27,085 nt of DNA from an uncultured Candidatus Binatia bacterium (GCA_965213675.1 CBDCAF010000011.1:1-27085), one strand, 5' to 3'. Positions 828-22,554 are shown, numbered from the stretch's first letter. Numbers and translations are program-made. Notes: a model not told the origin generated them from the sequence alone.

Positions 828-1215
828 TCATTCCCCGGCAAGGGGAGTGGTCCTCGACGAATCATCGAGCGGCCCGGTTCTGGGTGGAAGGAATCGGACC
901 TCGTCACCGGTTCGGGCTGCCGGAACCGCAAGCACGTCGCAGCCAAGGACATCGTCGATCCACGTCTGTGGCGCCGCATCGGTGTGCCTAGTGTGCCACT
1001 GACCGGTGTCGGTGCCGGTGTCACTCCGCCAGAACACCGGGACGCGGTCTCGGGTCGCGGGATCGTAGCGTAGCTCCCAAGTAGGACAACTTTTGGACTC
1101 GCATCGCGCGTGCCGAAGCACTTGCGATCTCGTGCCGTGAATTGGACATCGCGGCCGCCGCAGGCCGGGTCATGTGGCCAAAGCCTGCTGGCACACGATC
1201 TCCTCGTGCGCTGGT
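828..1215 (-). pseudogene. Frameshifted C-terminal Zn-ribbon tail, probably of the upstream McrC-like gene
   Basis: Across frames: AHEEIVCQQALAT-(C)PACGGRDVQFTARDRKCF-HARCESKSCPTWELRYDP...WIDDVLGCDVLAVP...stop at 828. Removing base 1170 turns ACA TGA CCC G into ACA TGC CCG (T-C-P); a second indel sits at ~1113. Confidence 0.55.
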
Positions 1216-1472
1216 CGACTACGGGGTGCTCAGGTCTTCGCCCGTGCGCATCAAGAAGGCGGTGTCGATAGACAGCACCATCGTCTTGCGCCATCCGTGC
1301 GATTCATATGGTTGCCGCGGATTGGCTATCACCTTCTCTCTCTCCCCTCGCTGAACCAGCAGCATGGCCGCGATCATGGACCGAGCGTACGTGGCGAGAG
1401 CCTTCTGCTCTCCCGCGCGACCCTCGCCAAACTTTCCTTTGAAGGGATTCCGGCGCTCCAACCGCTTCGACG

Positions 1473-3332
1473 TCATCTTCCTCGGATTCTTGGCGTCCGA
1501 TAGTGTTGTACGGCCTGCAGAAGGCCGCGTCTCTCGACGTTGGGACTACTTCTCCGCCCGTCTACACGGGCCTTCTTGAGCGCCTCCTGTGCGTCTGCTT
1601 GGTCTCGCACCAACTGGTCCCGATCCGAGCGAGCCTTCTGCAAACGCCCCTCGATGTTCAACTCCGAGAGCTCGTTTGGACGCGGAGGCTGCACCATTGC
1701 CCATGAGGACCCTCCACGGTCCGCTTGCCATGAGCCTTGTCGGGCCACGTTCACCATGTCCGGCTGCTGAATCGCCTGCAAGGTCGGCGGATACGCAAGC
1801 ATCCGGCGTGCGAGGGTCCCCCATCGGATCGCCCTGGACACCCGCTCGACGCTGTCAAGGGAGAACGGCGAGACTCGTATGAAGTCAATGGCTCCCGACA
1901 TCGACAGGTCCGGAGGGTTACCAATGCCTGCCAACAGGTCATGCGGCGGCTTGCCGGGGACGGCAGGGTGCAGGATGACGGTCCAGAGGGCCGCGTCGGC
2001 GACGTCACCGACAAGCGAGTCAATGCGCGCATTGGCCGCCTTCCGTGTCCTCGCGCGTTCGAGTGCGTGAGCCACCGGAATGAAGCGGACGACAATCTTG
2101 TCTACATCCGCAAGGGTGATTGAGCCATCCTCTTCCCATGCGACTCGGAAGCCTCCATCTAGTCGGATGCTGCACCCCGGCCGGATCTCCGACTCCAAAC
2201 CGTCGTCTTCGCCCGGGTCGAGCCTGAGCTGCGAGCAGGCCCGCACCACGAGGAGCATGCACCATGCGTCGAAGCCGCTACGCAGGTCCTGGTGCCGGAC
2301 GTACAGCTCGCGAGGGGACGGGGCACGCAGCGCCGCCAGTTGAGACCACTCATGCCAAAGTCGTGCGATGCCGCGGTAGTGGTCATCGTTGCGGAGAAGA
2401 TTGGTCATCCGCAGTGCGCGCGGCGCCGGGGCGCGCTTGGGGATGTGCCGGTACAGCCGGGAGTCCATCAAGCCGAGCGTGCGGTAGAGCAGGCGGTCGA
2501 GCCGTTTGAGCGTCCGCTCGGCGATCTCGCGGCCTTGGCTCGCGTCCCACACCTCGCCCCACATCCGGTAGATCCGATCGGCGCGGTGACGGGTTCCCGA
2601 GACCGATTCGCCGATGCTCCCCACGCGGGCCAGGATGTCGTCGAGGATGCGGCGTACCTCGGCGATTCGCCGACGCAACCAGGTGACGAGGTTGTCCACG
2701 AGGCGTACGGCGACCCGGTTCTCGTAGAGGTCCCATTGTTCCTCCCGCACCTCGGCGAGGATTCGGCGCGGCTGGATGCCGGAGATCTTTCGATGATCCC
2801 AGTCTTCCGTGTGGAAGGCGAGCCATGCCGGAGCGTTCGGCGCAATCCTCCGGGCGCGCGCCACGAGGACGCGCTCGGTCTCCACACGGATGTGGGTGCG
2901 GGGTTTGCGACAGACGGCCACGAGGTGGTCCAGCTCGGCCTCGATGCGGTCTTCGAATGGATCGGGCTTTACCGCTTTGTCCAGCCCGGGCGCGAGCGGA
3001 CTGGTCTCGCTCCACTCCAGCCAGCCACCCTTCGCCTTCTCGGCGTCTCGCAGCCGTCTACCAAGCTCCCGCACGGCCTCGACATCCTGCTCGTCGGGCA
3101 GGGGATCGGCGAAGAAACGCCCTCTCGTCGGGATGGTGTCGCCGGGCCGGGTCAGCGCGCAGTCCCCGGCCGCTCCCGGCGTCAAAGCGTCTCCGGCATC
3201 TGCCGGCCATCCGTTGATGCGCACCGCTCCGGCCGCGTCGCTCGGATCGAAAAACCAGCACCCGAAGAGCATCCTCTCGGGCAGTTGCTCCGCCTCGACC
3301 GATCGGCCCGAGATCCGATTCCTGAAGCTCAT
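1473..3332 (-). CDS. DUF2357/McrC-like protein (CnuC-like), probably 3'-truncated
   Basis: 619 aa; WDLYENR and TNLLRNDDHYRGIARLW segments typical of DUF2357/McrC N-domains; ATGA overlap with the McrB-like stop; short coiled coil near the end. Confidence 0.8.
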   Translation of the reverse strand: MSFRNRISGRSVEAEQLPERMLFGCWFFDPSDAAGAVRINGWPADAGDALTPGAAGDCALTRPGDTIPTRGRFFADPLPDEQDVEAVRELGRRLRDAEKAKGGWLEWSETSPLAPGLDKAVKPDPFEDRIEAELDHLVAVCRKPRTHIRVETERVLVARARRIAPNAPAWLAFHTEDWDHRKISGIQPRRILAEVREEQWDLYENRVAVRLVDNLVTWLRRRIAEVRRILDDILARVGSIGESVSGTRHRADRIYRMWGEVWDASQGREIAERTLKRLDRLLYRTLGLMDSRLYRHIPKRAPAPRALRMTNLLRNDDHYRGIARLWHEWSQLAALRAPSPRELYVRHQDLRSGFDAWCMLLVVRACSQLRLDPGEDDGLESEIRPGCSIRLDGGFRVAWEEDGSITLADVDKIVVRFIPVAHALERARTRKAANARIDSLVGDVADAALWTVILHPAVPGKPPHDLLAGIGNPPDLSMSGAIDFIRVSPFSLDSVERVSRAIRWGTLARRMLAYPPTLQAIQQPDMVNVARQGSWQADRGGSSWAMVQPPRPNELSELNIEGRLQKARSDRDQLVRDQADAQEALKKARVDGRRSSPNVERRGLLQAVQHYRTPRIRGR

Positions 3333-5794
3333 TCGTCGTTGTCCTCGACTTGACCCAGGCGCCGGAGCTCGGAGCGCAGCAGATCGAGGGCGCGGAGAGG
3401 TGGCGAATTCTCGTCGAGACCGGGCCAGGACTCCTCGATTAGTTGCTTCAGAGTCTCGATGTGCTCCGGTCGGTTGTCGTGACGGTTCCTGAGCTTGCGG
3501 AGAAGACGCATCGCCAGCATGTGGTCCGTCGCTTCCCCGACGCTCCCGCCGGCGGCGACTACGACCGGGATGTACCGATGTATCTGCCGCTCCAGGCGGG
3601 GACCCCAGCCTATGTCGAAATCGCTCTTGAGCTGATCGCGGATGTTGGAATCGAGGAATTCGATTGCCTTGTTCGCGGATTGCTTTCCTCTCTGCATTGC
3701 GGTCCGGAACGCCGTTTGTAGAGCTCTGAAAGAAACCGGGTGGCGCGGCAGCGGTTTGTCGACAGGGAATTGCTTCGGACGATGCGGAAACTCCATGACG
3801 TGGGACCGATCATAGGTCTTGTCCGCGAAGTCCATGGTCGTCTCGTCGTGATTGGCGGTTCCGACAAACCACACGTTCGGCGGGATGCGCAGCCCGCGCC
3901 CTTCGATGAGCCGCGACGGGGCCGGCTCCACCGGATGCGTCATGAGCACCAGACGCCGGTCCTCCTGTGTGAGTTCCAGAGCGGACAGCAGATCGGAGAA
4001 GTACTGCTCCGGATGGGAGAGGTTCATCTCGTCCAGCAGCACGATCCGGATGGTGTCCTTCCATCGTGGCGTGCCAGCTCGGTACAGTGCCTGGAGGAAC
4101 TCCTTCTCGTAGAACCTCCTCTCGAAGGCGTTGTAGTGGCCAACGAGGTCCTGTGGGTCGCGCCAGCCGGCCTGCACCTCGATAACGTCGGCCCTCGTGC
4201 CGACCGCACGTGCGAACGCCATGGGAAGGCTGGTCTTGCCGGTCCCGCTGATGCCCTGGAGAAGGAGCAACGGACCCATGGCGAGTCCGCCGAGGAAGCT
4301 GCGAAGGTCGGCCAGCGTGTAATAGAGGGTGTCGTCGGGTCGCGTCGGATCGGACGCGATGCGGTGCTGCAGATCCTCGACGAACGCCTTGAGATCGCCA
4401 ACGTCGTCGGACATTGGCTCGGTCGATTGGAGGGCAGCATCCGCGTCCATGGCAGTGCATGCGGGGAAGGGCGACTTGGCCTCGTTGCGGCTCACCAAGT
4501 CGTCGATCTCCGATCGGACTTGCTCATGTGCTGAGTGGAGCAATTTCCGCCGGCTCTCCAGCGATGCGATGACGTCGCGCTGATCCTCTCGCTCGTTGGC
4601 ATCGGCGTCGGAGTAGGCCAGGCGTCTCTTCAACTCGGAAACCTGTCGGCTCAGCTCGACGCGATCGGCGTGCCATGTTTCCTGCTCATGCTCGAGTTCC
4701 GCGAGGCGGGCGGCGGCTTCGGCGTCGGGACGCTCGGCCAACTGTGTCCGAAACTCGTCGTTCCGGGCGCGTAGCGTCTCGTTCTCATTCAACACCTCGT
4801 CCGGCGTGCGCTGGCCGAATTTGCGATCCGCCTCCACACGTCGCTGAAGAGCCGATTCGAGGGCGTTACGGCCATCCTGCGCATGCTCGAGCTGGTCTTC
4901 GAGGGACCGGATGCGCTGCTCCAGCTTCTCCCGAATGCCCGCCGCCAGTTGCTTCGCCCGATTGCCGAGGTCAACACGCAACTCCGCAAGATCTTCCGCC
5001 TCGAATCTGAGTCGCCGCTTCTCGTTCTCCAGATCTCTCCGTTCCTCGGCGACCAAGGCTTCGCGGTCGTCCAGAGCCTGTTCTCTCTCCGTCAGCCGCG
5101 CTTCGTTCGCCTCTCGTTCCTTCGTGAGCTCTGCCTGGGATGCCTCGCGTTCCGCATCGAGCTGCTTGCGGAGACCGGCGCGCGCCGTCCGTTCCTCCTC
5201 ATGCCACGCATCGCGCATCTCGGCGACTTCGTGTTCCGTCTTCCTCGACTCCGCCCGACGCTCGGCGAGCGACGCTTCGAACTTGGACAGCATCGATCGC
5301 CGTTCGGCATCGAAGCCATGCTCGGCGTTGACCTCTCGCCGGCGGAGATCGACTTCCCGTTGTGTGAGGGCGGCCTCCCGATCGGAAACCTTGCTTTCGT
5401 GTTCGCCCGAGGCCGCAAGACGGGCCGCGAGCTCGTCTTCCTGGGCGTCGATCTGCCTGGTGCGCTCGACAAGCGAAGCCTTCGTCTCGGCGATCTTCGA
5501 TTCCCGTCCGTCCAGTTCTTTGGCACGACGTTCGTACCGGTCCTTTGCTGAGCGGAACATGTCGCGGGTCTCCCGGACGATCTGCGACATGGAATCGAGG
5601 TCCGCGCCCGCGGGTCTCGGATCGTCGGAGATTGCGGACATGTCCTCGTCGGTCGCGATTCCCGTGGCCTCGTCGTGTGCGGCCTTGATCTCCTCCACCC
5701 GTGATGGGGCCGCTGCTTGCTCCGGTTGCTTGGCGCGGGACCGAGATGCGCGGCTCCCGGTGCGTCCTTGCTTCCCGCCCTTACTCCTTGGCAT
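3329..5794 (-). CDS. McrB-like AAA+ GTPase with long N-terminal coiled coil (CnuB-like)
   Basis: 821 aa; Walker A GISGTGKT, VQAGWRDPQDLVG, Walker B VLLDEMNLS, GTANHDETT (NxD), KTYDRS; residues ~70-435 are E/R/A/L-rich heptads. Confidence 0.9.
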   Translation of the reverse strand: MPRSKGGKQGRTGSRASRSRAKQPEQAAAPSRVEEIKAAHDEATGIATDEDMSAISDDPRPAGADLDSMSQIVRETRDMFRSAKDRYERRAKELDGRESKIAETKASLVERTRQIDAQEDELAARLAASGEHESKVSDREAALTQREVDLRRREVNAEHGFDAERRSMLSKFEASLAERRAESRKTEHEVAEMRDAWHEEERTARAGLRKQLDAEREASQAELTKEREANEARLTEREQALDDREALVAEERRDLENEKRRLRFEAEDLAELRVDLGNRAKQLAAGIREKLEQRIRSLEDQLEHAQDGRNALESALQRRVEADRKFGQRTPDEVLNENETLRARNDEFRTQLAERPDAEAAARLAELEHEQETWHADRVELSRQVSELKRRLAYSDADANEREDQRDVIASLESRRKLLHSAHEQVRSEIDDLVSRNEAKSPFPACTAMDADAALQSTEPMSDDVGDLKAFVEDLQHRIASDPTRPDDTLYYTLADLRSFLGGLAMGPLLLLQGISGTGKTSLPMAFARAVGTRADVIEVQAGWRDPQDLVGHYNAFERRFYEKEFLQALYRAGTPRWKDTIRIVLLDEMNLSHPEQYFSDLLSALELTQEDRRLVLMTHPVEPAPSRLIEGRGLRIPPNVWFVGTANHDETTMDFADKTYDRSHVMEFPHRPKQFPVDKPLPRHPVSFRALQTAFRTAMQRGKQSANKAIEFLDSNIRDQLKSDFDIGWGPRLERQIHRYIPVVVAAGGSVGEATDHMLAMRLLRKLRNRHDNRPEHIETLKQLIEESWPGLDENSPPLRALDLLRSELRRLGQVEDNDE

Positions 5795-7400
5795 TTCGAA
5801 TTTCCTTCAAAGCTTCCTCCATGGGCCGCACCGGCAGGTCCAGCAGCAACCCGACGATCTCCAACGTGTCCTCAACGGTGGCGGTGGCCGAGGCCATATC
5901 GAACTGCCCACCTTCGTTGTTGTGGGCTGCTTCCCCGCCATGTTTCGTCACGCGCTCGACCCTTGCGAGAAGGTCCGGTGCCTTTCTGGCAGCCGAACGC
6001 AGCGGGTGCTGCTCTTCGGTCCTCGCACGCAGCAGGGTTGCTGCGACGAGTGGGCGAAGGCGCGGGCTGTCAGGGTAGTCGCTAACCGACTGCACCAACC
6101 CATGTCTGACCCGGCATATGGCCTTGGGAACCGCCAAATCCGCAAATCCAACATCGACCGCCGCCGCCCGCAGCACCTTGGCGTTCACCTCTTTGTCTTC
6201 TCGGGAGAGCCCTGCTGCGACGCCGGCAAGCGGCCACGCCACTGCGACGTCACGGAAGAGCCGTTCGAGCGTTCTCCGGCAAGAGGTCAGGACGTTGCGC
6301 CGGTGCCGCCGGCCCGCGGCGTCGCCAAGGTCTCGCAGCTCGAGCCACCCTTCAAGCGTCTCCGTCAACGGCTCCACGACGCCGTGGTGGTGTACGTCCA
6401 TCGTCAGCGCCCACTCCGCCAGCCGGCGGGCATGGCTCTCTCGACTCCTTGCCGCGCGTCTGAACGTGTCGAAGTCGCCGTGCGGTGTGCGGCCGAGCAG
6501 TCGGTTCAAGCGCCGCGCGAGATGCGGCTCCTTCTCCTCATCGGCCACTCGGACGACAAGCCGCCGCAACCCCGGGTCGCTGCCCCGCCCGAAGAAATCG
6601 CACGCATGCCAATCGGCGTCGTCTTCGTCCTGGGGGACGTACAGGAAAGAGACCAGGAACACGGGCTCCGGCTCCGGCTCGATGACGGAGATCCGGTTGA
6701 AGTCGAGCCCCGAGACGCCGGCAGCCTCCGTATCGTCTTCGTTCTGCCACTCGTCGAGCCGTCGCGAACGCTGTGCACGTCGCTTGTGCCGGCGTACGGC
6801 GCGCAGAATCTCGCGGGCGTCGGGGGGGTCGGCGCCGCCGGACCCGCCGTCGGACAACTCCCCGCCGCGCCCGCCGGGCGGGAACTGCATCCATGCCGAC
6901 TGTCGCCAGGGTCTGCCGGTCGAACCGAACATAAGGACGGGGTGGCCCCTCTCGTCCAGCTCGGTCGGCGCGTACTCCAGGGAGGCCGCCACGAACGGCC
7001 ACAGGCTCCCGTTCCACGGATCTCTGAACACCCAGCCTGGCGCCAGCTTCGTCGAATGCTCGTGCTCCTCCTCGAGCACCTCGATACCGCGCCCGGTGAC
7101 CGTCCATGTGTCGTCGATGCGACCCTGGGTGTGCAATTCCATGGCGACGAACGCCGCGAGTTCGGGATGTACGCCCAGACGAGCACCGAGTTCGTCCGCG
7201 GTGAGCCGGCTGGCCCGCAGCACACCCAACACCGCCTTTTGCAACAGGTTGACGCCGTGCGGCCGAAGCTCCGGCGCCACCACCCGGAAGGCACGGGCCG
7301 GCCAGAGCAGCCATTCCCGGTCGTTGCGCCGGCCGGGGTTCGCGTGGGGGCGCGGTCCATAGGAGAGGACCGGCGTCTCAGGTCCGAACGACGTGGCCAT
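5781..7400 (-). CDS. wHTH + HEPN-like protein (CnuE-like)
   Basis: 539 aa from ATG 7400 (GAGGGA upstream, overlaps helicase end). N-terminal winged helix (NLLQKAVLGVL...TADELGARLGVHPEL...LHTQGRID...TVTGRG); C-terminal helical domain with CRRTLERLF and terminal GGEAAH where an RxxxxH motif would be expected. Confidence 0.7.
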   Translation of the reverse strand: MATSFGPETPVLSYGPRPHANPGRRNDREWLLWPARAFRVVAPELRPHGVNLLQKAVLGVLRASRLTADELGARLGVHPELAAFVAMELHTQGRIDDTWTVTGRGIEVLEEEHEHSTKLAPGWVFRDPWNGSLWPFVAASLEYAPTELDERGHPVLMFGSTGRPWRQSAWMQFPPGGRGGELSDGGSGGADPPDAREILRAVRRHKRRAQRSRRLDEWQNEDDTEAAGVSGLDFNRISVIEPEPEPVFLVSFLYVPQDEDDADWHACDFFGRGSDPGLRRLVVRVADEEKEPHLARRLNRLLGRTPHGDFDTFRRAARSRESHARRLAEWALTMDVHHHGVVEPLTETLEGWLELRDLGDAAGRRHRRNVLTSCRRTLERLFRDVAVAWPLAGVAAGLSREDKEVNAKVLRAAAVDVGFADLAVPKAICRVRHGLVQSVSDYPDSPRLRPLVAATLLRARTEEQHPLRSAARKAPDLLARVERVTKHGGEAAHNNEGGQFDMASATATVEDTLEIVGLLLDLPVRPMEEALKEIRNAKE

Positions 7401-10400
7401 CGGGTCCCTCGCAGAGCTTTCTGAACGCACACAGCGCCGGCACGGACGATTCCGCGTCGGAACCGGCGGCCATCGCGCCGTCGCCGACGACCACCAGCAA
7501 TCTGTGCTGGCGGCTCATCGCGACACAGAGCCGGTTCTCCAGCAGCAGGAAGCCGTATCGACGCCGCCGCGTGGCCTCGTTCTTCACTTGCGTGCGGTTC
7601 GAACGGGTCAGCGACAGGAAGACCACGTCGAATTCCTTGCCCTGGAACGCATCGACGGTGCCGATCCGGAGCCGCTCGCGGCCGTCGCTCGTCCTGCGCC
7701 ACCGATCTCGGACCCGGAATCCGCCCTCGTCGTGTGGCTCCGTCAGGTCCACGCGACGCATCGCGTCCAGGATCTCGTCGCGTTGCGCTGCGTAGAATGT
7801 GACGACCCCTACACTGAGCTCGGGATGGCGGGAGACGACCGCGTGCGCCTCGTCCGCCACGCGGCGCGCTTCGACCGGGCGGCGCTTGCTGCGGCCTGTG
7901 CTCTCGGGTCCACGATCGACGGACAGTTCGATCCAGACGGCCACCTTGCCGGCCAGCGAGACACCGTTCTTCAGGATCACGTCGTGCGCGAACTCGCCCT
8001 CGTCGCGACCGGAGTCGAACTCCTCTCCGTGGGGCTCGTAGAACTGCTCGCTGACGAAACGGCCCAACCGGGGATGCATCCGATACTGCGTGTTCAGGGT
8101 CACCGTCCGCTTGACCCCGTCATTCTTCTCGTGCCGGCGCAGGTCGGTGAACAGCTTCTCGAATAGGCTCTGGCGCAGCGCGGATTGCGTCTCTTCCCGA
8201 CCCGACTGCTCGAGCTCGCGCTCGACGTCCGGCTCGAGGATGTGCGGAAGCTGCCGGTGATCGCCGACGAGAACGATTCGCCGCTCCGCGAGCGCCATGG
8301 GGATCAGAAGATCGAGAGGATTCGACCTCGCCGCCTCGTCCACGATCACGGTGCGGAACACCGTGTCGTCTCCCAGCCTGGCGTCCGCCATCCACCGGCT
8401 GACCGACTGCTGGCAGGTCGCCGCGAGCACCATCGAGTAGTGCCGGATGGTCTCCCGGATCCCTGCGGCGTCGTTCTCCAACCTGGAGAGCCACTCGGCC
8501 ACCGCGACATCCGCGCCGGCTGCCGTCTCCTTCGCCCTCTCCGACAGCGCGTCGATCACACGCATGACCACGCTCTCCACGTCGGCGTGGGTACGCGGGG
8601 CGGCTGGGCTGTCCGCGGCCGGCTGCATCCGATCGATCAGGGCATCCCTTGTCGCCCGGAGACGGCCCAGGAGGTCCTCTCCCGCCGCCGAATCGGGGGG
8701 AACGTCGTGCGCCTCCTCGAGGCACGACCTCTCCTCGCAGGTCAGCGTGAAGCCGTCGACGCGTCCGAGGCGCCGGAGCGCCTTGTACGCATTGGCGGGA
8801 CCGTCGTCCGAGAACGGCACCGCGTCGGACCGAATCGCCCTGACCGCTTTGAGCGCGAACGCGCGGTCGTCGTCGGCGATGTGGACCGGCAGGGACCCGG
8901 ACAGCTTGGCTTGGAGTTCACTCATCGCCGCTGCCAGCTCTCCCGGCAACCAGGGGCCGGCCACATCCGATACGCGGCGAAGTACGCGGGTCGGCTCGTC
9001 CCGGCCGCTCGTCGCCTTCAGGTACGCCACGGCAATCTCGCTGACCGAACGAAGCGCCGCATGGACCGAATCTTCAGCCGCGCCATGGACGCGGGCCGCG
9101 CCCACCGTCTTGGCCGTCTCCGTCCTCCATGCCTCGACGCCGTCGCGTGCCTCGTCCGAACCGCGGCGGTACCCCACCTTGACGGCGGGGAGGCCCATGA
9201 CCCGGGTGGCGGCGGCCGCGTTCTCCACCGCGTCGTGCTGGAAGCTGGTCAGGAGCGTGCTGCCCGAGAGTCCACCGGGATCGACGCCCTCGTCCGGCTC
9301 TGCCAGACGGGCCTGCAAAGCGGCGATCACGCGGGTCTTGCCCGTCCCCGGCGGCCCCTGCACGAGCGCGATGTCCGGTGTGTTCAGGGCGATGTCCAGT
9401 GCGAGCCTCTGGCGGTCGTTGGGATTCGGGAACACGTCACGCACCGCCTTCGTGACCGGCTTCAGACGGCGACCTCGCCGGTCGCGGACCGGCTGCCCCT
9501 CGAGCATCATCCCGAGCTGAGGCATCGGATTCGCGCAGCCCCGGATTCGCTGCCATGCGAGGCGACGTCGGTCGATGCGCATTTCGTCGCCGCCCAGACC
9601 GAGAAAGATGAACCCCCGGGAGGGCGGCTCGCGGTCTTCCTGCTCCGGGGGCGGATGAAGGGTCAGACTGTGGTCCCGCTTCGCCACGAGATCGCCCGTG
9701 AACGGCCGCCGGTGTCCTTCCAGCGCATCTTCGCCATCCGCTCCCTGAATGACCGCGGGGACCTCTTCGCCCGCCTGCAGCTGCTCCCGGTCCAACGCCT
9801 CGAGCCGTCGCCGAAAGTCGACCGCCTTCGCCCCTTCGAGGTCGAGGTCGAAGCGCCACTCTCCGCCGGGAAGCTGTTCCCGGCGGGAGTAGCGCGCCCA
9901 TCCAAGCTCTCGCGCCCGCCGCAGGATCGCCTCGCGCTCCCTGTCGTTGTACGCCTGCCACAGCCCGAGGTAGCTGTCCGCCTGCGCGACGAGGCTGTCG
10001 AGCTCGGTGCGTGCTACTCCCCTGAACTCGCCCGCTACGGTCGCATCGCAGAAGCTGATCTGCCCGGTCGCGAGAAATATCGGCCGGTGCTCGTCGCCTT
10101 CGATCGCGTGCCGCACCGAGACGACGCGGTTGACCCGAAGGCGGTCGTCCGATCCACGCTCGACATCCACCGCGAACCTGTCGCCGTAGAGCCGGAAGGC
10201 GGTCTTCTTGCCGGCGTCGGGTCGGGCCGACCCGGACAGCAGCGCTCTCGGCGGTCCATCGGGATCGCGGGAAGGAAGCAACATGCGTTCCGTCAGCCAT
10301 TGCACGACGCTCTCGACCGAGACCAGGCGTCCCTGGCGCTTGCGCATGTCGTCCACGACCCTGTCGTCGACGCCGATGTCCATAGGCTCGTCCCAGACAA

Positions 10401-10701
10401 AAGCGGTCGGGAACTCGTGAACCTGGACGAGGAGACGGGCGGCGGGACCCTGGGCGGGCGTGGCCTGTACCAGCCAGGCGAGCCGGGGCAGGCCGATCCG
10501 CCGGAGGGTGTCCACATCCGGTGGATCGACGCCTTCCACCCCCCATGCATCCTCACCCACCCGGATCCGAAAACGGTCGTACTCGCCGCCCGACAGGAAC
10601 ACCTCGGATCCCTTGACAAGACCTTCGGGAAAGCGGTCCCCGTCGGCTCGGCGCAGATCCGTGGTCGCCATGCGGCCGTGAATCACGTCGGAGACCTTCA
10701 T
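7378..10701 (-). CDS. Superfamily 1 helicase, UPF1/DNA2-like (CnuH-like)
   Basis: 1107 aa from ATG 10701 (ATGA overlap with kinase stop). Motifs: NDRQ, QGPPGTGKT, IVDEAAR, VGDHRQLP, SLFEKL, LNTQYRMHP, VTFYAAQ, TVDAFQGKEFDVV, NRLCVAMSR. Confidence 0.93.
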   Translation of the reverse strand: MKVSDVIHGRMATTDLRRADGDRFPEGLVKGSEVFLSGGEYDRFRIRVGEDAWGVEGVDPPDVDTLRRIGLPRLAWLVQATPAQGPAARLLVQVHEFPTAFVWDEPMDIGVDDRVVDDMRKRQGRLVSVESVVQWLTERMLLPSRDPDGPPRALLSGSARPDAGKKTAFRLYGDRFAVDVERGSDDRLRVNRVVSVRHAIEGDEHRPIFLATGQISFCDATVAGEFRGVARTELDSLVAQADSYLGLWQAYNDREREAILRRARELGWARYSRREQLPGGEWRFDLDLEGAKAVDFRRRLEALDREQLQAGEEVPAVIQGADGEDALEGHRRPFTGDLVAKRDHSLTLHPPPEQEDREPPSRGFIFLGLGGDEMRIDRRRLAWQRIRGCANPMPQLGMMLEGQPVRDRRGRRLKPVTKAVRDVFPNPNDRQRLALDIALNTPDIALVQGPPGTGKTRVIAALQARLAEPDEGVDPGGLSGSTLLTSFQHDAVENAAAATRVMGLPAVKVGYRRGSDEARDGVEAWRTETAKTVGAARVHGAAEDSVHAALRSVSEIAVAYLKATSGRDEPTRVLRRVSDVAGPWLPGELAAAMSELQAKLSGSLPVHIADDDRAFALKAVRAIRSDAVPFSDDGPANAYKALRRLGRVDGFTLTCEERSCLEEAHDVPPDSAAGEDLLGRLRATRDALIDRMQPAADSPAAPRTHADVESVVMRVIDALSERAKETAAGADVAVAEWLSRLENDAAGIRETIRHYSMVLAATCQQSVSRWMADARLGDDTVFRTVIVDEAARSNPLDLLIPMALAERRIVLVGDHRQLPHILEPDVERELEQSGREETQSALRQSLFEKLFTDLRRHEKNDGVKRTVTLNTQYRMHPRLGRFVSEQFYEPHGEEFDSGRDEGEFAHDVILKNGVSLAGKVAVWIELSVDRGPESTGRSKRRPVEARRVADEAHAVVSRHPELSVGVVTFYAAQRDEILDAMRRVDLTEPHDEGGFRVRDRWRRTSDGRERLRIGTVDAFQGKEFDVVFLSLTRSNRTQVKNEATRRRRYGFLLLENRLCVAMSRQHRLLVVVGDGAMAAGSDAESSVPALCAFRKLCEGPDGHVVRT

Positions 10702-12107
10702 CGGGCAGTCCCCTGGCTGAGATCGAAGCGTATGACGCGATGAAGGCCGTCCGCGGGGCCGGCATGGACCATCCATGTCGCTCCCGCGCCGCTGATTGCG
10801 ATATCCACCGGTCCTCCCTCGATCCATCGCTCCCGCTGGCCATCCGGCGAGGCTAGACGCCAGCGTTCGCCGTCGAGTGGCTGCAGCGTAAGCCGATCCC
10901 CCGAGAATTCGACCCGCAGCTTCGGCTTCGACCCGGAGGTGCCTTGGGTCATGCGTTCGGTCAGCTCGGTGGGCTCGTCGGCGGAGATGGCCAGTGCATC
11001 GACGACCCGTGGCTTGCCGCTCGGATTGCGCACGATCCCGGGCGCGGATTCCAGCTCGCCGACGCTGCTGCCTCGCAGTTTCCGCCGATCCGGGTCCCAT
11101 AACAGGACCGCCGCAAAGACGAAGCCGGGACGTGGGGCGTCGCACCAAGAACAGCAGGGTAGGTTGCAGAAATAGCTGCCGGAGCACTCGGGGCAGGTCA
11201 CGGTTCGATCCGCGGCCCCATGGAGTCGCTCGGCCCAGCGCGACAGTCCGGGACGTGCGCGGGGATCGGACAGCCCCGCACCGAAGGTCAGGCCGAAGTC
11301 GTCTCGGAGCCTGAGAGACAGCACGATGTCGCGCGGGATGCCGGCGCCCGACCGGTTGCGGTCGTCTTCCGGTTCATCAATCCACGGCAGGTGGCCGGCG
11401 AGCGCCTGCTCCTCCAACTCCGGCTCTCCGTCCCGCACCGCGTCTCCCAGCAGGGGATGTACGAGCGCCAACGTCTCGAAGGCCATCACCGCGAAAGCAT
11501 GCGCATCGCTGAGAGAGCTGGGCATTCCGGTCTCTCGGACGATCTCGGGGGCTCCGTAGCCCGGCGTGAAGAGCGCACCGCCCGCCTGTGTCGCCGCACG
11601 CAAATTGTCCGTGTCGATCAACCGGACTTCGCAAGCGTCCGTTTGGCTGGAAACGAGGATATTGAAGGGCGACGGATCAACGTAGACCAGCCCGCGACCG
11701 TGGATCTCGGACAGCACCTCCGCAATTCGTGCAAGCAGCCGGAGCCGGCGGCGAAGCCCGCCGCCCTCGAAGTACCATGTGCAGACCGACGCAACTCCTC
11801 TCGGGGGACGGCCCAGCGAACCGAGGGACGTCATGCCGGTGAACAGCTCCATCACGTAGCCCATGTGCGGCGGGCGAAGCTGCTCCAGTGGACGGGCCAC
11901 GGCCAGACCCGCCAGAGGCAGGCGTCCCACCATGGCGAGCTGATCGCGGAGTCGCTCGCCTGCTCCGGCGGATCGGTCTCGCAGCAGCTTGACCGCTCGG
12001 CGATCTCCCTCGACCGCGAACACCGTGCCCTGACCGCCGCGCCCGAGCTCGGGGCCGAGGCGGTATCGGTTTCCGTGGATGGACGTGACGGCATCCGGCT
12101 TGCTCAC
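10698..12107 (-). CDS. TerY-P-type Ser/Thr protein kinase with Zn ribbon
   Basis: 469 aa from GTG 12107 (GGAGG RBS, GTGA overlap with PP2C stop). LGRGGQGTVF, AVK, GYVMEL, YVDPSPFNIL, IDTDN, TPGYGAPE, then CPEC...CSWC. Confidence 0.9.
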   Translation of the reverse strand: MSKPDAVTSIHGNRYRLGPELGRGGQGTVFAVEGDRRAVKLLRDRSAGAGERLRDQLAMVGRLPLAGLAVARPLEQLRPPHMGYVMELFTGMTSLGSLGRPPRGVASVCTWYFEGGGLRRRLRLLARIAEVLSEIHGRGLVYVDPSPFNILVSSQTDACEVRLIDTDNLRAATQAGGALFTPGYGAPEIVRETGMPSSLSDAHAFAVMAFETLALVHPLLGDAVRDGEPELEEQALAGHLPWIDEPEDDRNRSGAGIPRDIVLSLRLRDDFGLTFGAGLSDPRARPGLSRWAERLHGAADRTVTCPECSGSYFCNLPCCSWCDAPRPGFVFAAVLLWDPDRRKLRGSSVGELESAPGIVRNPSGKPRVVDALAISADEPTELTERMTQGTSGSKPKLRVEFSGDRLTLQPLDGERWRLASPDGQRERWIEGGPVDIAISGAGATWMVHAGPADGLHRVIRFDLSQGTAR

Positions 12108-12826
12108 GATGCGCCTCCAACGGGTTCGGCAAGGACCGCCACGGTCTTGTCGTCCACGTGGCCGGGAACGGGCCAGTCCCGAAGCGCCGCGCAGAGGTGT
12201 CGCCAGCGGACCGCGGGGGCGAGCCGACCGACCTCGGTGGACAGCCAGTTCACGAACACGTCCAGCCGCTTCGGGTCCAGATCGTCCGCTACACCGTCGG
12301 TGGCGAGGATCACCAGCCGGCCGGAATCCGGTGGCCTGGTCTCGATCCACCAGTCGTCGATTCGATGCGGCGCTCCCAGCGCCAGCGTCTCGTTTCCGAA
12401 GCAGCCCGGGCTTCGTCCACCGAAGGTCGTCGTTTCTCCATCCCTACTGTGTACAAGGGCGAGCCCGTCGCCGAGACCGGCGAGCAGCAGATGACCATCG
12501 GGCTCCCGCAACGCGAAGAGACAGGTGCTCGCGCACTCCGCGGGGGAGCGAGGGGCCAGCGCGAGGCGCCAGAGGATCTCCACCAAGCGCACAAGGTGCT
12601 TCGGGTCCGCCGAGCATGCCGTGCCGGGCCATGTCGGCACTGCCTGCCGCAGTGCTCGGCATGCGGCTTGTGCGCCGGCTTCGGAGGCGGAAAGCGAGCC
12701 CACTCCATCGCATACGCCGATCAGGTGTCCAAACCTGCCGTCGGCCCGGATCCAGGCGTCCTGATTCGCCCGTCCTTCCCGCCGGTTGCGTGGACCGCGC
12801 ACCGACGCCCCGTAGGTCGCGACCAT
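12104..12826 (-). CDS. PP2C-family Ser/Thr phosphatase
   Basis: 240 aa from ATG 12826; NQDA, VCDGVGS, LGDG, LATDGV and DDKT metal-binding motifs. Confidence 0.9.
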   Translation of the reverse strand: MVATYGASVRGPRNRREGRANQDAWIRADGRFGHLIGVCDGVGSLSASEAGAQAACRALRQAVPTWPGTACSADPKHLVRLVEILWRLALAPRSPAECASTCLFALREPDGHLLLAGLGDGLALVHSRDGETTTFGGRSPGCFGNETLALGAPHRIDDWWIETRPPDSGRLVILATDGVADDLDPKRLDVFVNWLSTEVGRLAPAVRWRHLCAALRDWPVPGHVDDKTVAVLAEPVGGAS

Positions 12827-12837
12827 CTCCGGGATCT

Positions 12838-13500
12838 TCAGAAGTCGCCGTAGTCGTCGGGGTCGAGGGGAGCGACGTCGACGGTCTGATTGGGCGTTGC
12901 ACTCCGGGAGCGTGCGGTCACGCTCATCGTCACCCACTGGAAGAACTTCCGGATCTCGCGCGCCTCGTGTGCCTCGAAGACCCGCCCCTCCGGGTCGTGG
13001 AGGAAGGCGCGCAGCACGTCATGATCGGCGTCGGCACCGATGCCGAGGGCGAACCGTTGCGCTTTGGCGGCGCGCTCGGAGCCGAGCAACCGCTCGAGCG
13101 GTCCCTCCCACTCGTCGTTCGGGAGTCCGTCGCTCACGAGCACGATGGTGGGCCGGTACGCGCGGCTCGGGACACGGTCGCGGTCCTCGATCAAATCGGT
13201 GACGATATCCAGCGCAGCGCCCATCGGCGTCCGGCCATGGGCCTCCATCGGAGTCCACCGGACCTCCCTCGCGAGGGTCAGTGGTGTATGCAGGGCCGCC
13301 GTTCCTCCGAACGTCACCACGGCGAGGTGGATCTCCGCTCGCCCGTCGTCCTCTTCGGCGAAGGCGTCCCGCATCTCGGTCACCGCCGAGTTAAGTGCTT
13401 CGATCTTGCCGTCGACGCCCATGCTGCCACTCACGTCCGCCATCAGAACGACAGGGAGCGGGCGTGCGGATGCAATGGTGAAGTCTTTCGTGCTGGGCAT
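12838..13500 (-). CDS. terY: TerY-like vWA domain protein
   Basis: 220 aa; RPLPVVLMADVSGSM (MIDAS DxSxS), GRTPMG, PTIVLVSDGLPND, FFQWVTMSV; AAGGAG RBS upstream; first gene of the operon. Confidence 0.88.
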   Translation of the reverse strand: MPSTKDFTIASARPLPVVLMADVSGSMGVDGKIEALNSAVTEMRDAFAEEDDGRAEIHLAVVTFGGTAALHTPLTLAREVRWTPMEAHGRTPMGAALDIVTDLIEDRDRVPSRAYRPTIVLVSDGLPNDEWEGPLERLLGSERAAKAQRFALGIGADADHDVLRAFLHDPEGRVFEAHEAREIRKFFQWVTMSVTARSRSATPNQTVDVAPLDPDDYGDF

Positions 13501-13692
13501 GTTTGGTCTCCTTGCCTGAGCCTAGGCGTACGCGGCTGCCTTGCAGCAGGGTTCTTCTGGTCCGATGTGTAAGCCGAAGTCGTGAGTCATCCGCGGAGCC
13601 CACCGCGCACTGGCCAACGGGTTGCCGGCTTTCCGGAAGCCGCTGGCTCCGGTGCAGTTCACCCTCCGCTCGTGCGTTGTTTTCGACGTCGT

Positions 13693-14085
13693 TGGAGTTA
13701 CCCCGCTTTCGTGGACAGTACAAGGCTGTCGCGAACAGGGTTGAAGTGGGCGGCAGCCGATGGAAACAAAGGCTTGTCGATCACCGAGGGAACGGTTTGC
13801 CCCGGAGGGTGGTGATGGATGTCGGACTGGCGGATCGGGAAGGCTCCAGGGCTGGTCTCGGTGTGCAGTCCGTCGTCGTGGTCCCTGGCAGGCACCATAG
13901 CGTCCGTAGCGGCACGTTCGAACTCGTTGGGGCTGCATAGCCCAAGGCGGAGTGGCGACGTCTGGTGTTGTACCAGCCTTCGAAGAACTGGAAGACGGCC
14001 ATGCGCGCCTCGACCCGTGTCCGAAACGCTCGCCGTTCGATCAGCTCGCACTCCAGGGTAGCGAAGAAGCTCTCGGCCATGGCGT
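13693..14085 (-). mobile_element. IS3-family remnant (3' end of transposase plus one terminal IR)
   Basis: AMAESFFATLECELI...FEGWYNTRRRHSALGY-(frameshift)-SPNEFE is the IS3 integrase-core C-terminus; TGGAGTTACCCCGCTTTCGTGGACA at 13693-13717 resembles an IS3 terminal repeat; the 5' part is missing. Confidence 0.88.
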
Positions 14086-14095
14086 ATGGAATGTC

Positions 14096-14185
14096 TGGCG
14101 GAGAGGGAGGGATTCGAACCCCCGTTACCCGAAGGTAAACCTGATTTCGAGTCAGGCGCCTTCAACCGGACTCGGCCACCTCTCC
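14096..14185 (-). tRNA. tRNA-Ser (anticodon CGA)
   Basis: 90 nt; acceptor stem GGAGAGG/CCTCTCC, discriminator G plus CCA, anticodon arm CCTGA-CTCGAAA-TCAGG, long variable arm TTACC-TTCG-GGTAA, T-loop GGTTCGAATCC. Confidence 0.97.
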
Positions 14186-14199
14186 GCAGTTGATTGTAG

Positions 14200-14228
14200 A
14201 GCGTAGCATGCCCTCTGGCGGTTGGGAA
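14200..14228 (-). promoter_or_regulatory. Possible sigma70 promoter of the tRNA
   Basis: TTCCCA - 17 bp - TACGCT, preceded by TG (extended -10), ending 14 nt before the mature 5' end; an alternative TACAAT lies at 14193-14198. Confidence 0.35.
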
Positions 14229-14352
14229 CTTGTAATCTGAACGACTGCGCCCGACCGGAGCAACGCGGCCCGCTCGGTCTCGCCTCCGCATTTGCCACTA
14301 CCCTTCATGGGTGTTAGGCCGTGGGGACGCCCCGCCGGCGTCTTCCACTGCC

Positions 14353-15387
14353 ATGAAACACAAGGTCCAGTATCTGCTCGGTCCCGAGCATATCGAAGTG
14401 CGTGAAGAGCCCGTGCCGGTGCCCGGTCCGGGAGAGCTGCTGGTGCGGATTCGGGCGGCTACCACCTGCGGGACGGACGTGAAGGTGTTTCAGCGTGGAG
14501 GGCATTCACGGATGCTGCGGGTGCCGACGCCCTTTGGGCATGAGTTCGCGGGATCGGTGGAGGCGCTGGGCGCGGGCGCGTCCGGTTTTCGGCCCGGCGA
14601 CCGGGTGGTGGTGGCCAACTCGGCGCCGTGCGGGCGCTGTTCGTACTGCGCGGCGGAGCGGGAGAACCTTTGCCGGGACCTCGAATATCTCAACGGCGCG
14701 TTCGCGGAGTACATCCGGATACCCCGGCGGTTCGTCGAAGTCAGCACGCACCATCTCGACCCGGACCTTCCCTACGAGGTCGCCGCGCTGGTGGAGCCGG
14801 TAGCCTGCGTGATTCATGGGATTGACGCCAGCCGGCTGGCGGACGGCGCCGATGTGCTGGTCCATGGAGCGGGACCCATCGGGCTGTTGCTTGCCGCCGT
14901 GCTGGCGTTCCGAGGGCACGATGTGGTGGTGGCCGACCCCAATCCGCACCGTCTCGACGCGGCGCGGACCCTTGGAGCGCGAGAGACGGTGGAGGTGGCC
15001 CGCGGCAGCGCCCAGCGCGATCGCCTGCGGCTTCGTTCAAGAGACGGCGACGGCTTCGACTGTGCGATTGACGCCACCGGCGTGCCCGCAGTGTGGCAGG
15101 ACGCGGTGGCGTGCGTACGCCCCGGAGGTGTGGTCAATCTGTTCGGCGGCTGCGCGCCGGGGACGAAGATTTCCCTGGACACGGCGTCGGTCCACTATAA
15201 CGAACTGACCGTCATGGGCGCGTATCATCACCGGCCGGCCACGGTGACGCGGGCGCTGGAAATGTTGAGCCGGAAGACCCTGGACCCGCGTCCCCTCTTG
15301 TCCGCCGACGTGCCGCTGGCGGACCTGGAGCAGGCGCTGCGGTCCATGATGGCGCGCCAGGCGCTGAAGGTCGTCGTGCGACCCTGA
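14353..15387 (+). CDS. Zn-dependent alcohol/polyol dehydrogenase (MDR family)
   Basis: CGTD, GHEFAG, structural Zn CGRCSYC...NLC, GAGPIG Rossmann motif; ATG 14353 preferred over the track start at 14311. Confidence 0.92.
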   Translation: MKHKVQYLLGPEHIEVREEPVPVPGPGELLVRIRAATTCGTDVKVFQRGGHSRMLRVPTPFGHEFAGSVEALGAGASGFRPGDRVVVANSAPCGRCSYCAAERENLCRDLEYLNGAFAEYIRIPRRFVEVSTHHLDPDLPYEVAALVEPVACVIHGIDASRLADGADVLVHGAGPIGLLLAAVLAFRGHDVVVADPNPHRLDAARTLGARETVEVARGSAQRDRLRLRSRDGDGFDCAIDATGVPAVWQDAVACVRPGGVVNLFGGCAPGTKISLDTASVHYNELTVMGAYHHRPATVTRALEMLSRKTLDPRPLLSADVPLADLEQALRSMMARQALKVVVRP

Positions 15388-15393
15388 CCCGCG

Positions 15394-16278
15394 TCACACC
15401 ACCCGCCGTCGCAAGAACGCGCTCAGATAATCCACTCCCGTCACCAGCACGTACAGGGCGATGAGCAGCGTCAGGAGCTGTTGCTCGAAGAACAGGCTCA
15501 TGGCGATGTGGATGCGCTGGCCAAGGCCGCCGGCGCCGACGAAGCCCAACACCGCGGCGACGCGGATGTTCACTTCCCAGCGATACAGCGTGTACGAAGT
15601 GAACTGGGGCAGAACCTGCGGCAGGATGCCGTAGAACAGGATCTGAATCTTGCCGGCGCCGGTGGACTGGAGGGACTCGACGGGCTGCAGGTCCACATCC
15701 TCCAGCACCTCGGCGAAGAGCTTGCCCAACACGCCGCCGGTATGGACGCCGAGGGCCAACACCCCGGGGAACGGTCCCAGCCCCACGAGAAAGACGAACA
15801 CCAGCGCCCAGAGCATCTCCGGGATGGTGCGCAGGAAGTTCAGGATCGCTTTGGCCGCGAGGTATGGAACGCGCCGCAACGCGTGAAAGCCGCCCCGGGA
15901 CTCCATTTCGTAGAGCAGGCCCGCGTACGCGAGATTGCGCGCGCCAAAGAAAGCCAGCGACAGCGCGATGACCGCCGACAGCACGGTGCCCGTGAGGGAG
16001 ATGGCCAGGGTCTCCCAGGCGCCGTCCACGGCATCGGCCACCACCTTGGGCGAGAAGTCCGGCGGAAAGAGGCGCGTCACGTATTCGGCGATGGCGCCGC
16101 CGCCGTCCGCGCTGAAGAGCATGCCGAGGTCGATCTCCGACCCCTGATAGCTCCATGCGAAGAGAGCCGCCAGGAGGCCGAGCATCACGCAGGTGAAAGC
16201 GCGCGAGCGATCACGCCCGGCAGCCCGGAGCGCCCGCACCTCGTCCATCGTAGCCGCGGTCCGGTTCACCGGAGTCAC
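15394..16278 (-). CDS. phnE: PhnE-like ABC permease (second copy)
   Basis: RTIPEMLWAL, GLGPFPGVLAL, GVLGKLFAE, LYRWEVNIR, LGFVGAGGLG; GTG start overlapping the upstream stop (GTGA). Confidence 0.9.
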   Translation of the reverse strand: MTPVNRTAATMDEVRALRAAGRDRSRAFTCVMLGLLAALFAWSYQGSEIDLGMLFSADGGGAIAEYVTRLFPPDFSPKVVADAVDGAWETLAISLTGTVLSAVIALSLAFFGARNLAYAGLLYEMESRGGFHALRRVPYLAAKAILNFLRTIPEMLWALVFVFLVGLGPFPGVLALGVHTGGVLGKLFAEVLEDVDLQPVESLQSTGAGKIQILFYGILPQVLPQFTSYTLYRWEVNIRVAAVLGFVGAGGLGQRIHIAMSLFFEQQLLTLLIALYVLVTGVDYLSAFLRRRVV

Positions 16279-17126
16279 AGCAGCGACCTCACCTTCGCAC
16301 TCACGTAGTCCGCTCCCGCCACCAGCGCGAATAGAATCAGCAGCAGGGTCGTGACCTCGTGAAAATTGAACATGCGGATGGAGATCTGGATCTGCTGGCC
16401 GATGCCGCCGGCGCCGACAAGTCCGAGGATGGCCGACGTGCGCACGGCGCACTCCCAACGATACAGGGTGTACGAGGTGATGTTGGGCAGCACTTGCGGG
16501 AACCAGCCGTAGAAGAACACCTGCAACCGCCCGGCGCCGGTGGCCTGGATGGCCTCCAAGGGCCGCTCGTTCACCGACTCGAATATCTCGGAGTACACCT
16601 TGCCGAGCATGCCGCCGTAGGCCACGCCGATGGCGAGCACGCCGGGAAACGGCCCCAGGCCCACGGCGCGCACGAACATGAAGGCCCAGACGAACTCCGG
16701 GATACAGCGGAACAAGCTCAGCAGCGCCCGCGCCAGGCCATACAGGGCGACCTTGAGGCCGTGCCGCAGCCCGGCGTCGCGGAATCCGGTCTCGTGGAGG
16801 ATGCCCTGGAAACTGAAAGTGCTGGTGGCCAGCAGCCCCAAGGGAAACCCGATGACCACGGCGATCACCGTTCCCATGACCGAGATCTGAACCGTCTCGA
16901 TGGTCGGCCGGACCATCAACGCCAGAAATTCCCAGGAAAGCTCCGGCGGATACATCCCTGTGACGAACTGCCACAGGTGCTCCCGCCCCTCGGGCTCGAA
17001 GAAGATCCCCGGGTTGACCTCCGCCCGGCGCCAGCTATCGGCGAGAAGGACCAGGAACAACCCGCCGAAAACGTACGGGAAGAGGGATCGGGAACCCGGT
17101 GATCGGGACGTGAAGCTCGGGGGCAC
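16275..17126 (-). CDS. phnE: PhnE-like ABC permease (first copy)
   Basis: RCIPEFVWAF, GLGPFPGVLAI, GMLGKVYSE, LYRWECAVR, LGLVGAGGIG; exact start uncertain. Confidence 0.9.
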   Translation of the reverse strand: MPPSFTSRSPGSRSLFPYVFGGLFLVLLADSWRRAEVNPGIFFEPEGREHLWQFVTGMYPPELSWEFLALMVRPTIETVQISVMGTVIAVVIGFPLGLLATSTFSFQGILHETGFRDAGLRHGLKVALYGLARALLSLFRCIPEFVWAFMFVRAVGLGPFPGVLAIGVAYGGMLGKVYSEIFESVNERPLEAIQATGAGRLQVFFYGWFPQVLPNITSYTLYRWECAVRTSAILGLVGAGGIGQQIQISIRMFNFHEVTTLLLILFALVAGADYVSAKVRSLL

Positions 17127-17190
17127 CAGGAGCCTGTCGGGTTGATCGACTCGTAGCGAGAGTCAGAGAAGGGCCGGTTTCAACAGGCTC

Positions 17191-18866: not shown

Positions 18867-19044
18867 CGATGCCTCCGGATAATGGAATTCCACCAAATGG
18901 ATAACATCGGAAGCTATATGTCAAATGGACCTTGCCATCCGGCAGGTCCTGCCATGGATGCGCGCGCGGCGCCCGGCCCGGAAACCGGGAGAACGCGCGC
19001 GATGAACGGCTGTTTGAATCCGTTGCCATGAGCCGCCAACCCGG

Positions 19045-20540: not shown

Positions 20541-20572
20541 GTCGTGCCAAGTCTTGCCGCGAAGGCCGCCGG

Positions 20573-21786: not shown

Positions 21787-22554
<768 letters not shown>

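Follow-up and report, generated by a model that had tools for sequence, protein, structure and literature searches.

What kind of system do seven co-oriented genes on a contig from an uncultured Candidatus Binatia bacterium encode, and is this copy likely to work? The window analysed here is the entire 27,085-bp contig C12 (GCA_965213675.1, CBDCAF010000011.1:1-27085) of an assembly of 21 contigs. A sequence-only reading of it had proposed that positions 828 to 13,500 hold a defence operon in which a TerY-P phospho-switch is coupled to a helicase, a winged helix-turn-helix (wHTH)-HEPN protein and a coiled-coil McrBC module. We consider the locus to be a horizontally acquired Type II CoCoNuT operon with a TerY-P triad that is now in decay, and put the probability of identification and decay together at about 0.85. 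The copy is truncated at both ends, and it belongs to a known, recently validated kind of defence system. The stretch under study starts at 828 because the lost C-terminus of the last gene, cnuC, sits further on, at 1168–1106 and 1109–831.

Identity of the seven genes

All seven open reading frames (ORFs) lie consecutively on the minus strand, from the vWA gene starting at 13500 to the McrC-like gene ending at 1473, and are joined in order by an 11-nt gap, a GTGA, an ATGA, a 23-nt overlap, a 14-nt overlap and a second ATGA. This is the arrangement that the sequence-only reading had given, and the shared orientation and all six junctions were re-derived from the ORF coordinates. Start codons were picked to fit those junctions, and the genes of the closest relative (locus L002) begin at matching points with the same spacing. 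Over 12.0 kb, covering the six ORFs upstream of cnuC and its own first 611 codons, the coding sequence has neither stops nor frameshifts, and none of the seven genes was found a second time in the assembly. Six of the seven proposed domain labels are directly backed by Pfam, PADLOC or NCBIfam matches, while the McrC-like label holds only via homologues. PADLOC, run on the operon, returned matches to defence models, none labelled CoCoNuT; the 2023 models that we used have no CoCoNuT entry among them.

According to Bell et al. (eLife 2024, PMC11090510), Type II CoCoNuTs combine TerY-P with four Cnu proteins: CnuH, which is UPF1-like and has a large insert behind its Walker A motif; CnuE, in which an elongated wHTH is joined to a single HEPN domain; CnuB, made of a coiled coil and an NxD GTPase, the motif often followed by E or D, without a C-terminal HTH; and CnuC, an McrC in reduced form that consists of a beta-sandwich, DUF2357, a nuclease domain that is dead and a zinc ribbon. 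In that account the reading frames of cnuHE frequently run into the start of cnuBC. Our window agrees with this description in having the same seven genes in the same order, with cnuE overlapping the start of cnuB, a UPF1-like CnuH, a coiled-coil NxD CnuB, a CnuE made of a wHTH and one C-terminal domain with RxxxxH, and a CnuC family that has DUF2357 and a zinc ribbon; its relatives also carry the upstream RtcR-like and BrnT-like genes. It differs in its broken cnuC and in the absence of the promoter and of the RtcR-like and BrnT-like genes. The proposed TerY-P triad and the CoCoNuT assignment were thus both right, the match being to Type II as far as the description goes.

CnuH (7378–10701, 1107 aa) is a UPF1/IGHMBP2-like superfamily 1 helicase that matches Pfam AAA_11 (1.5e-26) and AAA_12 (5.2e-33), the PADLOC model MkoA (2.2e-80) and the NCBIfam IGHMBP2 family (5.7e-36). 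Its Walker A motif GPPGTGKT at residue 449 and its Walker B motif DEAA at 788 have 339 residues between them, and by this spacing and the family matches CnuH is the UPF1-like helicase that marks Type II, with its large insertion behind Walker A. The N-terminus of Type II CnuH is described as an SmpB-like OB fold followed by a RelE-like (RTL) domain (PMC11090510, available text); an Atlas feature search with the ~420-aa N-terminus of our protein (residues 1–420) gave weak leads with a score of 0.86 (SMUBP-2 1B, ZNFX1).

The triad sits at the 5′ end of the operon, as it does in Type II, and is recognized by its Pfam families together with the motifs DVSGS, CPEC and CSWC. The TerY-like vWA protein (12838–13500, 220 aa; Pfam VWA 1.8e-11) has the MIDAS motif DVSGS at residue 22 and is 94.5% identical to its L002 counterpart over the full length, though its match to the PADLOC TerY model is weak (0.0056). 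It is followed by a PP2C-type phosphatase (12104–12826, 240 aa; Pfam PP2C_2 9.7e-28) with DGV at residues 40 and 177, and by a Ser/Thr kinase with a C-terminal zinc ribbon (10698–12107, 469 aa; Pfam Pkinase 5.7e-9) that uses the GTG start in the GTGA overlap. The kinase matches the PADLOC models PD-T4-6 (2.8e-12) and, over residues 5–222, MkoA, and its sequence reads DPSPFN, DTD and then CPEC-x10-CSWC, with CPEC at 305 and CSWC at 319. A tail of ~147 aa (residues ~323–469) follows the zinc ribbon, is kept in all kinase-bearing relatives (alignments run to residue 463–469) and has no family match. The available part of the Type II description names only a kinase and a zinc ribbon for this protein, and treats the triad as frequent in Type II and outside the authors' core set (PMC11090510).

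CnuE (5781–7400, 539 aa) is the putative effector. Its AlphaFold2 (AF2) model, with a mean pLDDT (per-residue confidence score) of 83.7, has an elongated wHTH, the N-terminal trait of Type II, and a single all-helical C-terminal domain (~276–539). The protein itself has no Pfam match; among its relatives 15 of 34 match MarR_2 and 46 of 72 match wHTH-PRTase_assc. A Foldseek search of the model against the PDB recovered MarR-type matches only (~70–85 residues, probability 1.00, E ~0.1), all limited to the wHTH, and the weak PADLOC match to MkoB (5e-4) covers the wHTH only (residues 47–135). The wHTH half of the proposed wHTH-HEPN label was thereby borne out, while the HEPN half was not confirmed. 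No HEPN fold was recovered by Foldseek, no convincing HEPN match was found in Pfam for the protein itself or for its 34 or 72 relatives, and NCBIfam had none. The CnuE profile gave 0 matches to PDB sequences at E values up to 10, and the ESM Atlas gave no usable match for residues 270–539. Weak matches to DUF4145, which we take to be a HEPN-clan family, occur in 1 of 34 relatives (E 0.16) and 1 of 72 (0.027).

The C-terminal domain carries E379, R460-x4-H465 (RTEEQH) and H493. Conservation was read from 72 diverse relatives sampled from the 1038 cluster representatives found with the CnuE profile, and the near-invariant residues are E379 (in 70), H465 (70), P466 (68) and H493 (67). The RxxxxH motif of CnuE is called conserved in most cases in the available text of PMC11090510; of the 70 relatives in our sample that have the histidine only 22 also have the arginine, at −5 to −7, and the window protein has it. 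Some relatives are longer, at 722–771 aa (P0252, P0318, P0321, P0327, P0357, P0363, P0375, P0387 and others), and match the 521-position profile in two stretches; these may be a two-domain, Type III-A-like form.

CnuB (3329–5794, 821 aa) has an N-terminal coiled-coil region (~80–440) and an McrB-like AAA+ GTPase domain (Pfam AAA_5 2.8e-7) with Walker A GISGTGKT at 514, Walker B LDEMN at 587 and the NxD signature GTANHDE at 645–651. The signature is NxD followed by E and lies between Walker B and the C-terminus, as in Type II. PADLOC matches it to PDC-M26A (2.4e-35, a candidate system) and to JetC (0.005, over 31–432), and NCBIfam to SMC (SMC_prok_A, 9e-4, residues 173–445). Between residues 81 and 440 each 40-residue block has 0–3 proline plus glycine and 27–34 of E, K, R, Q, D, A or L, and this composition and the weak SMC-type matches fit a long predicted coiled coil. 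The ratio of nonsynonymous to synonymous substitution rates (dN/dS) of CnuB against the L002 gene (10595–13054) is 0.72 for the whole protein, domains unsplit, and is the highest in the operon (0.14–0.52 for the other genes). Like canonical McrBC, the operon has an AAA+ GTPase with a downstream DUF2357 partner joined by an ATGA overlap; it differs in the NxD in place of NxxD and in the coiled coil that replaces the DNA-reading N-terminal domain. According to the available text of PMC11090510, the CoCoNuT partner is also without the PD-(D/E)xK catalytic motif, and RNA is the predicted target.

The window's own CnuC has no Pfam match, so its family was read from 37 homologues, of which 26 match DUF2357 and 16 a Lar-type zinc ribbon. 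None has an McrC_C or nuclease match, save one AHJR-like at 0.097, and no Hsp70 or HEAT family is among the 25 families listed for them. In the AF2 model of homologue P0121 (pLDDT 82.9) a small beta N-terminus is seen together with long helices, an alpha/beta domain, a hairpin of helices and a module of four strands that is rich in Cys, and Foldseek of this model gave no McrC or nuclease match. The family appears to fit the Type II plan, with the window copy being without the end of the hairpin and the zinc ribbon.

Whether the gene order recurs elsewhere was named in the sequence-only reading, before the survey, as a point on which it could fail. A profile of 34 CnuE relatives led to 15 loci in a species-representative genome collection, which we searched by tblastn with the window's seven proteins. 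They come from Pseudomonadales, other Gammaproteobacteria, Myxococcota (including Archangium violaceum), Caldilineaceae, Deferrisomatales and others. In all 15, cnuH immediately precedes cnuE; cnuB follows cnuE in 13, the other two (L005 and L015) ending within 1 kb of cnuE; and cnuC is next in 12. The full seven-gene order recurs in eight (L002, L003, L004, L008, L009, L011, L012 and L013), and the lack of co-occurrence that would have told against the sequence-only reading did not arise. Contig ends cut the unit in five more, L005, L006, L007 and L015 beginning inside cnuH and L014 inside PP2C, and tblastn found no PP2C match in L016. The locus L010 (4565–14502), from a Caldilineaceae metagenome-assembled genome (MAG), has cnuH, cnuE, cnuB, cnuC and only the C-terminal four fifths of the kinase, and tblastn found no vWA, PP2C or RtcR-like gene there, with 9 kb of upstream sequence present.

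The nearest operon is that of L002, from a Pseudomonadales MAG, which aligns by blastn (window 1507–13690 to L002 14882–2699) at 91.7% nucleotide identity. Against it, the first five genes have a pairwise dN/dS of 0.14–0.39 and the N-terminal portion of CnuC one of 0.52, values that can neither date a loss nor separate the two lineages.

Experimental evidence for such an architecture was found in one place only. Obs (Obangsin), the genes obsA to obsG/cnuC of Pseudomonas aeruginosa PMM16, has a high degree of homology with Type II CoCoNuTs according to its authors, and in the available part of this 2026 preprint (10.64898/2026.04.06.716636) the seven cloned genes protected against PP7, LeviOr01 and MPK7, while transposon insertions in the third gene, obsC, and the seventh, obsG/cnuC, abolished defence. 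Our locus is like Obs in being a seven-gene cluster and unlike it in that Obs is intact and protective and the seventh gene of the window is broken; the two are likened here by description and not by sequence. The architecture, which the sequence-only reading thought might be described in silico, is no longer just a prediction, since defence has now been reported for a homologous seven-gene locus.

The broken cnuC and the missing regulator end

The operon had been called the island's only intact cargo, which is contradicted by its seventh gene. The cnuC ORF (1473–3332) ends at 1473 after 619 codons, while the ten best homologues are 723–766 aa long and intact ones overall about 700–767 aa. With tblastn, the 747-aa homologue P0121 aligns over residues 1–611 to 3332–1503 at 91% identity, then over residues 640–660 to 1168–1106 and over residues 659–747 to 1109–831, these last two in differing frames. 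By this alignment and the P0121 model, the truncated protein still has three regions, namely an N-terminal beta domain, a helical region of DUF2357 type and an alpha/beta domain, and stops within the second long helix of the coiled-coil hairpin. The leftover 3′ part of the gene (831–1168), for the zinc ribbon and C-terminal domain, lies in two frames with a frameshift near 1106–1109, and the first cysteine of its CPAC motif is replaced. It is 76% identical to L002 in nucleotides, compared to 91.7% for the rest of the operon, and its dS is 0.38 as opposed to 0.11–0.23 elsewhere, over 75 codons only. The part lost from CnuC holds residues that are near-invariant in the 37 homologues (C639, P640, C642, C656, C661, C666, W670, G710, C711 and D712), six cysteines among them.

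Between the two parts of the gene lie 321 nt of foreign DNA (1186–1506), at a place where blastn shows that L002 has 72 nt. The insert has colinear matches with deletions, at 74–100%, to C21:5933–6411 of the same assembly, an element encoding DUF4096 and DDE_Tnp_1 (an IS4/IS5-type transposase), and these matches identify it as an inner piece, now decayed, of an IS5-family transposase gene. The related element on C21 (locus L023, 5600–7000) is a complete IS4/IS5-type element between two ORFs; by eye, one resembles a cytosine-5 DNA methyltransferase's C-terminal end and the other the beginning of a Vsr-type mismatch endonuclease. Logan contigs of four sequencing runs (X1, X4, X5 and X7, from three studies) contain exact pieces of the window at low depth, including 346–954 and 10321–11415 with 0 differences in X1 and X4, and all four also include more abundant variants that are several percent different. 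No RNA run is among those listed as containing the window. Since no run piece among those listed spans 1186–1506, these runs neither confirm nor question the break in cnuC.

The other end of the operon is damaged as well. In all eight complete loci a co-oriented upstream gene of ~550 aa is present, its product 59–78% identical to the L002 copy, which has RtcR as its best NCBIfam match (1.1e-57) and a Sigma54_activat domain. A TGGCAC-N5-yTCGCw site lies 411–571 nt before the vWA start in the same eight, agreeing with 9–10 of the 11 specified positions of the sigma-54 consensus, and an ORF of ~110 aa stands between this site and vWA in each. Three copies of this ORF were scanned and all match DUF4258 (1.7e-6 to 1.8e-4), making it BrnT-like. 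The three-part layout spans 510–2888 in L002 and occupies the same region in L003, L004, L008, L009, L011, L012 and L013; associations with RtcR and BrnT-like genes are described for Type II as frequent and not defining (PMC11090510, available text). Such loci resemble the RtcR-RtcBA regulon in that a CARF/sigma-54 activator and a sigma-54-type promoter precede the operon, and differ from it in that the regulated genes are a defence operon and not RNA repair enzymes; a further difference is that our window and its whole assembly are without the regulator.

In the window, homology to the intact loci ends at ~13690, so that only the leader directly upstream of vWA (13501–13690, minus strand) is shared with L002. 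No RtcR-like or BrnT-like gene was found in the window beyond 13690, although a degenerate trace of the 3′ end of the BrnT-like gene may remain, and the whole assembly has no RtcR orthologue, only 32–35% matches to the AAA+ core. The best sigma-54-like site upstream agrees at 7 of 11 positions, and no sigma-70-like site was seen in 13300–14300, both by crude promoter scans. In place of the relatives' regulator end is a ~400-nt dispersed repeat (13691–14095), of which ~380 nt (13700–14078) recur in congeners, at 92% in G012 (C1:3262657–3263035) and at 71–88% in G003, G004, G013 and G016; G012 carries two copies, head to head.

Two other features were considered in this upstream region. ARAGORN called a tRNA-Arg(ccg) at 13602–13679 (plus strand, 78 nt), a candidate integration site that we rejected, as it scores below the Rfam tRNA threshold and lies in the leader common with L002, where ARAGORN gives nothing; the call is probably false. 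The idea of a conserved structured leader RNA upstream of vWA was also dropped because the last ~330 nt align poorly beyond the closest relative, save for the coding part of the BrnT-like gene.

The tRNA-Ser junction and a probable horizontal origin

Directly beyond the repeat is a tRNA-Ser(cga) on the minus strand (14096–14185; ARAGORN, Rfam tRNA 60.1 bits), and from exactly 14096 to its end at 27085 the window is 99.3% identical to positions 1000154–1013143 of the main chromosome contig C1 of this assembly, over 12,990 bp. C1 has the tRNA-Ser site without the island. As identity to C1 begins exactly at the 3′ end of the tRNA-Ser(cga), this is where the foreign DNA joins the chromosome; the left end of the island lies past the end of the contig. 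A search of 60 relatives, 27 of which are congeners, found CnuE in none, and L002 has flanks unrelated to the window's. Comparison of these sequences supports the operon having been acquired horizontally.

The chromosomal side (14096–27085) encodes an alcohol dehydrogenase, an ABC transporter, ScpB, a class I tRNA synthetase and a Xer-type recombinase. Because it is 99.3% identical to C1, the window is a strain-variant copy of this chromosomal region, which fits the assembly's contamination estimate of 8%, and with the right half of C12 duplicating C1 in this way the assembly mixes two close strains. This side also contains a ~165-nt repeat (19044–19210) that matches C1 at ~90 places and C4, C8, C17 and C19 at several, in most cases with 90–99% identity, and that looks like a miniature inverted-repeat transposable element or a repetitive extragenic palindromic (REP)-type element.

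Function of this copy and meaning for the family

The unit of the intact relatives has nine genes: an RtcR-like CARF/sigma-54 activator, then a sigma-54 promoter with a BrnT-like (DUF4258) gene, and then the seven genes. Following Bell et al. and the domain content, the activator may switch the operon on upon the appearance of damaged RNA ends, and the triad of vWA, PP2C and kinase-zinc-ribbon proteins would act as a phospho-switch gating activity. CnuH would translocate on RNA and hand it to the wHTH effector CnuE, while CnuB, the coiled-coil NxD GTPase, and the nuclease-dead CnuC may form a GTP-driven motor and scaffold held by coiled coils. The operon would thereby protect against RNA phages and also some DNA phages, an outcome that has been reported only for the Pseudomonas aeruginosa homologue in the available part of the preprint. 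Since the regulator and the promoter are missing from the window, and cnuC, in which an insertion ended defence in the homologue, is truncated, we lean towards this copy having lost its function, being either silent or non-protective.

Several points weigh against our reading of a Type II CoCoNuT in decay. The 12.0 kb of clean coding sequence fits a recent inactivation and is equally compatible with continued function, and the pairwise dN/dS values against L002, 0.14–0.39 for the first five genes and higher for CnuB and CnuC, leave the loss without a date. The absence of a promoter rests on the crude scans, and the HEPN and McrC folds of CnuE and CnuC were not recovered by Foldseek. From the available part of the preprint, the obs plasmid clone apparently worked without an RtcR gene, so that the regulator would be dispensable if another promoter drives the genes, and the obs insertions may be polar. 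A rival reading is an operon that still works, in which the 619-aa CnuC suffices and transcription comes from an unrecognised promoter or by read-through, making it a natural RtcR-independent variant without the zinc ribbon. The intact six ORFs and 611 cnuC codons are what such a variant would show, and the available preprint text mentions no RtcR gene for the protective seven-gene clone. The greater divergence of the 3′ piece of cnuC could be read in the same way, as decay since the break would mean that the rest was kept clean for some time; however, this divergence is also seen in dS, and recombination rather than decay could have produced it. The near-invariant residues in the lost part of CnuC, the loss of defence upon the obsG/cnuC insertion in the homologue and the lack of any sigma-70-like or sigma-54-like site in the upstream scans all speak against a working copy, which we regard as unlikely.

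A different objection would be that the operon is of another CoCoNuT subtype, Type III-A, or that it is a Mokosh-like helicase system merely adjoining an McrBC pair. Type III-A, as far as it is described in PMC11090510, also has TerY-P, a CnuH of the same domain plan, a wHTH-HEPN CnuE and a frequent RtcR association; several of our relatives are from Myxococcota, the group named there for it, and the CnuE family includes the longer forms matching in two stretches. It departs from the window in that its CnuE has two HEPN domains and its CnuC, which is without a zinc ribbon, is joined to Hsp70-like nucleotide- and substrate-binding domains and HEAT repeats, whereas the window CnuE is 539 aa long with one C-terminal helical domain, and the intact CnuC homologues, at 700–767 aa, end in a zinc ribbon and showed neither Hsp70 nor HEAT (0 of 37, among the families listed). 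As for Mokosh type I, the likeness lies in the helicase core, which is the strong MkoA match given above, in the kinase, which corresponds to the N-terminal part of one MkoA model, and weakly in the wHTH with MkoB. In the window, though, the kinase and helicase are separate genes, the McrBC-type pair and vWA and PP2C are added, the MkoB match is confined to residues 47–135, and Pfam finds in none of the operon proteins the PLD domain expected of an MkoB. The 14-nt overlap of cnuE and cnuB and the order fixed in the relatives also speak against a chance neighbourhood, and we give either version of this objection very little credence.

With a decaying Type II CoCoNuT preferred, the agreement in gene order, motifs and domains is with a system already known from the literature, and the window does not hold a new one. 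The copy adds little beyond illustrating decay after transfer, with a regulator end replaced by a repeat element and a last gene hit by an insertion sequence. In the improbable event that selection is keeping the six intact genes and a CnuC without its zinc ribbon under another promoter, this minimal RtcR-free CoCoNuT would reveal what the nine-gene unit can do without. Of modest use for the field are the near-invariant residues of the CnuE effector, which are E379, H465-P466 and H493 and not the arginine of RxxxxH. The 1038 cluster representatives found with the CnuE profile indicate that Type II CoCoNuTs are widespread, and the nine-gene layout of RtcR-like and BrnT-like genes, TerY-P and cnuHEBC is strongly conserved in Gammaproteobacteria, Myxococcota and further lineages, in a family for which the available preprint text now gives a first report of protection against RNA phages.

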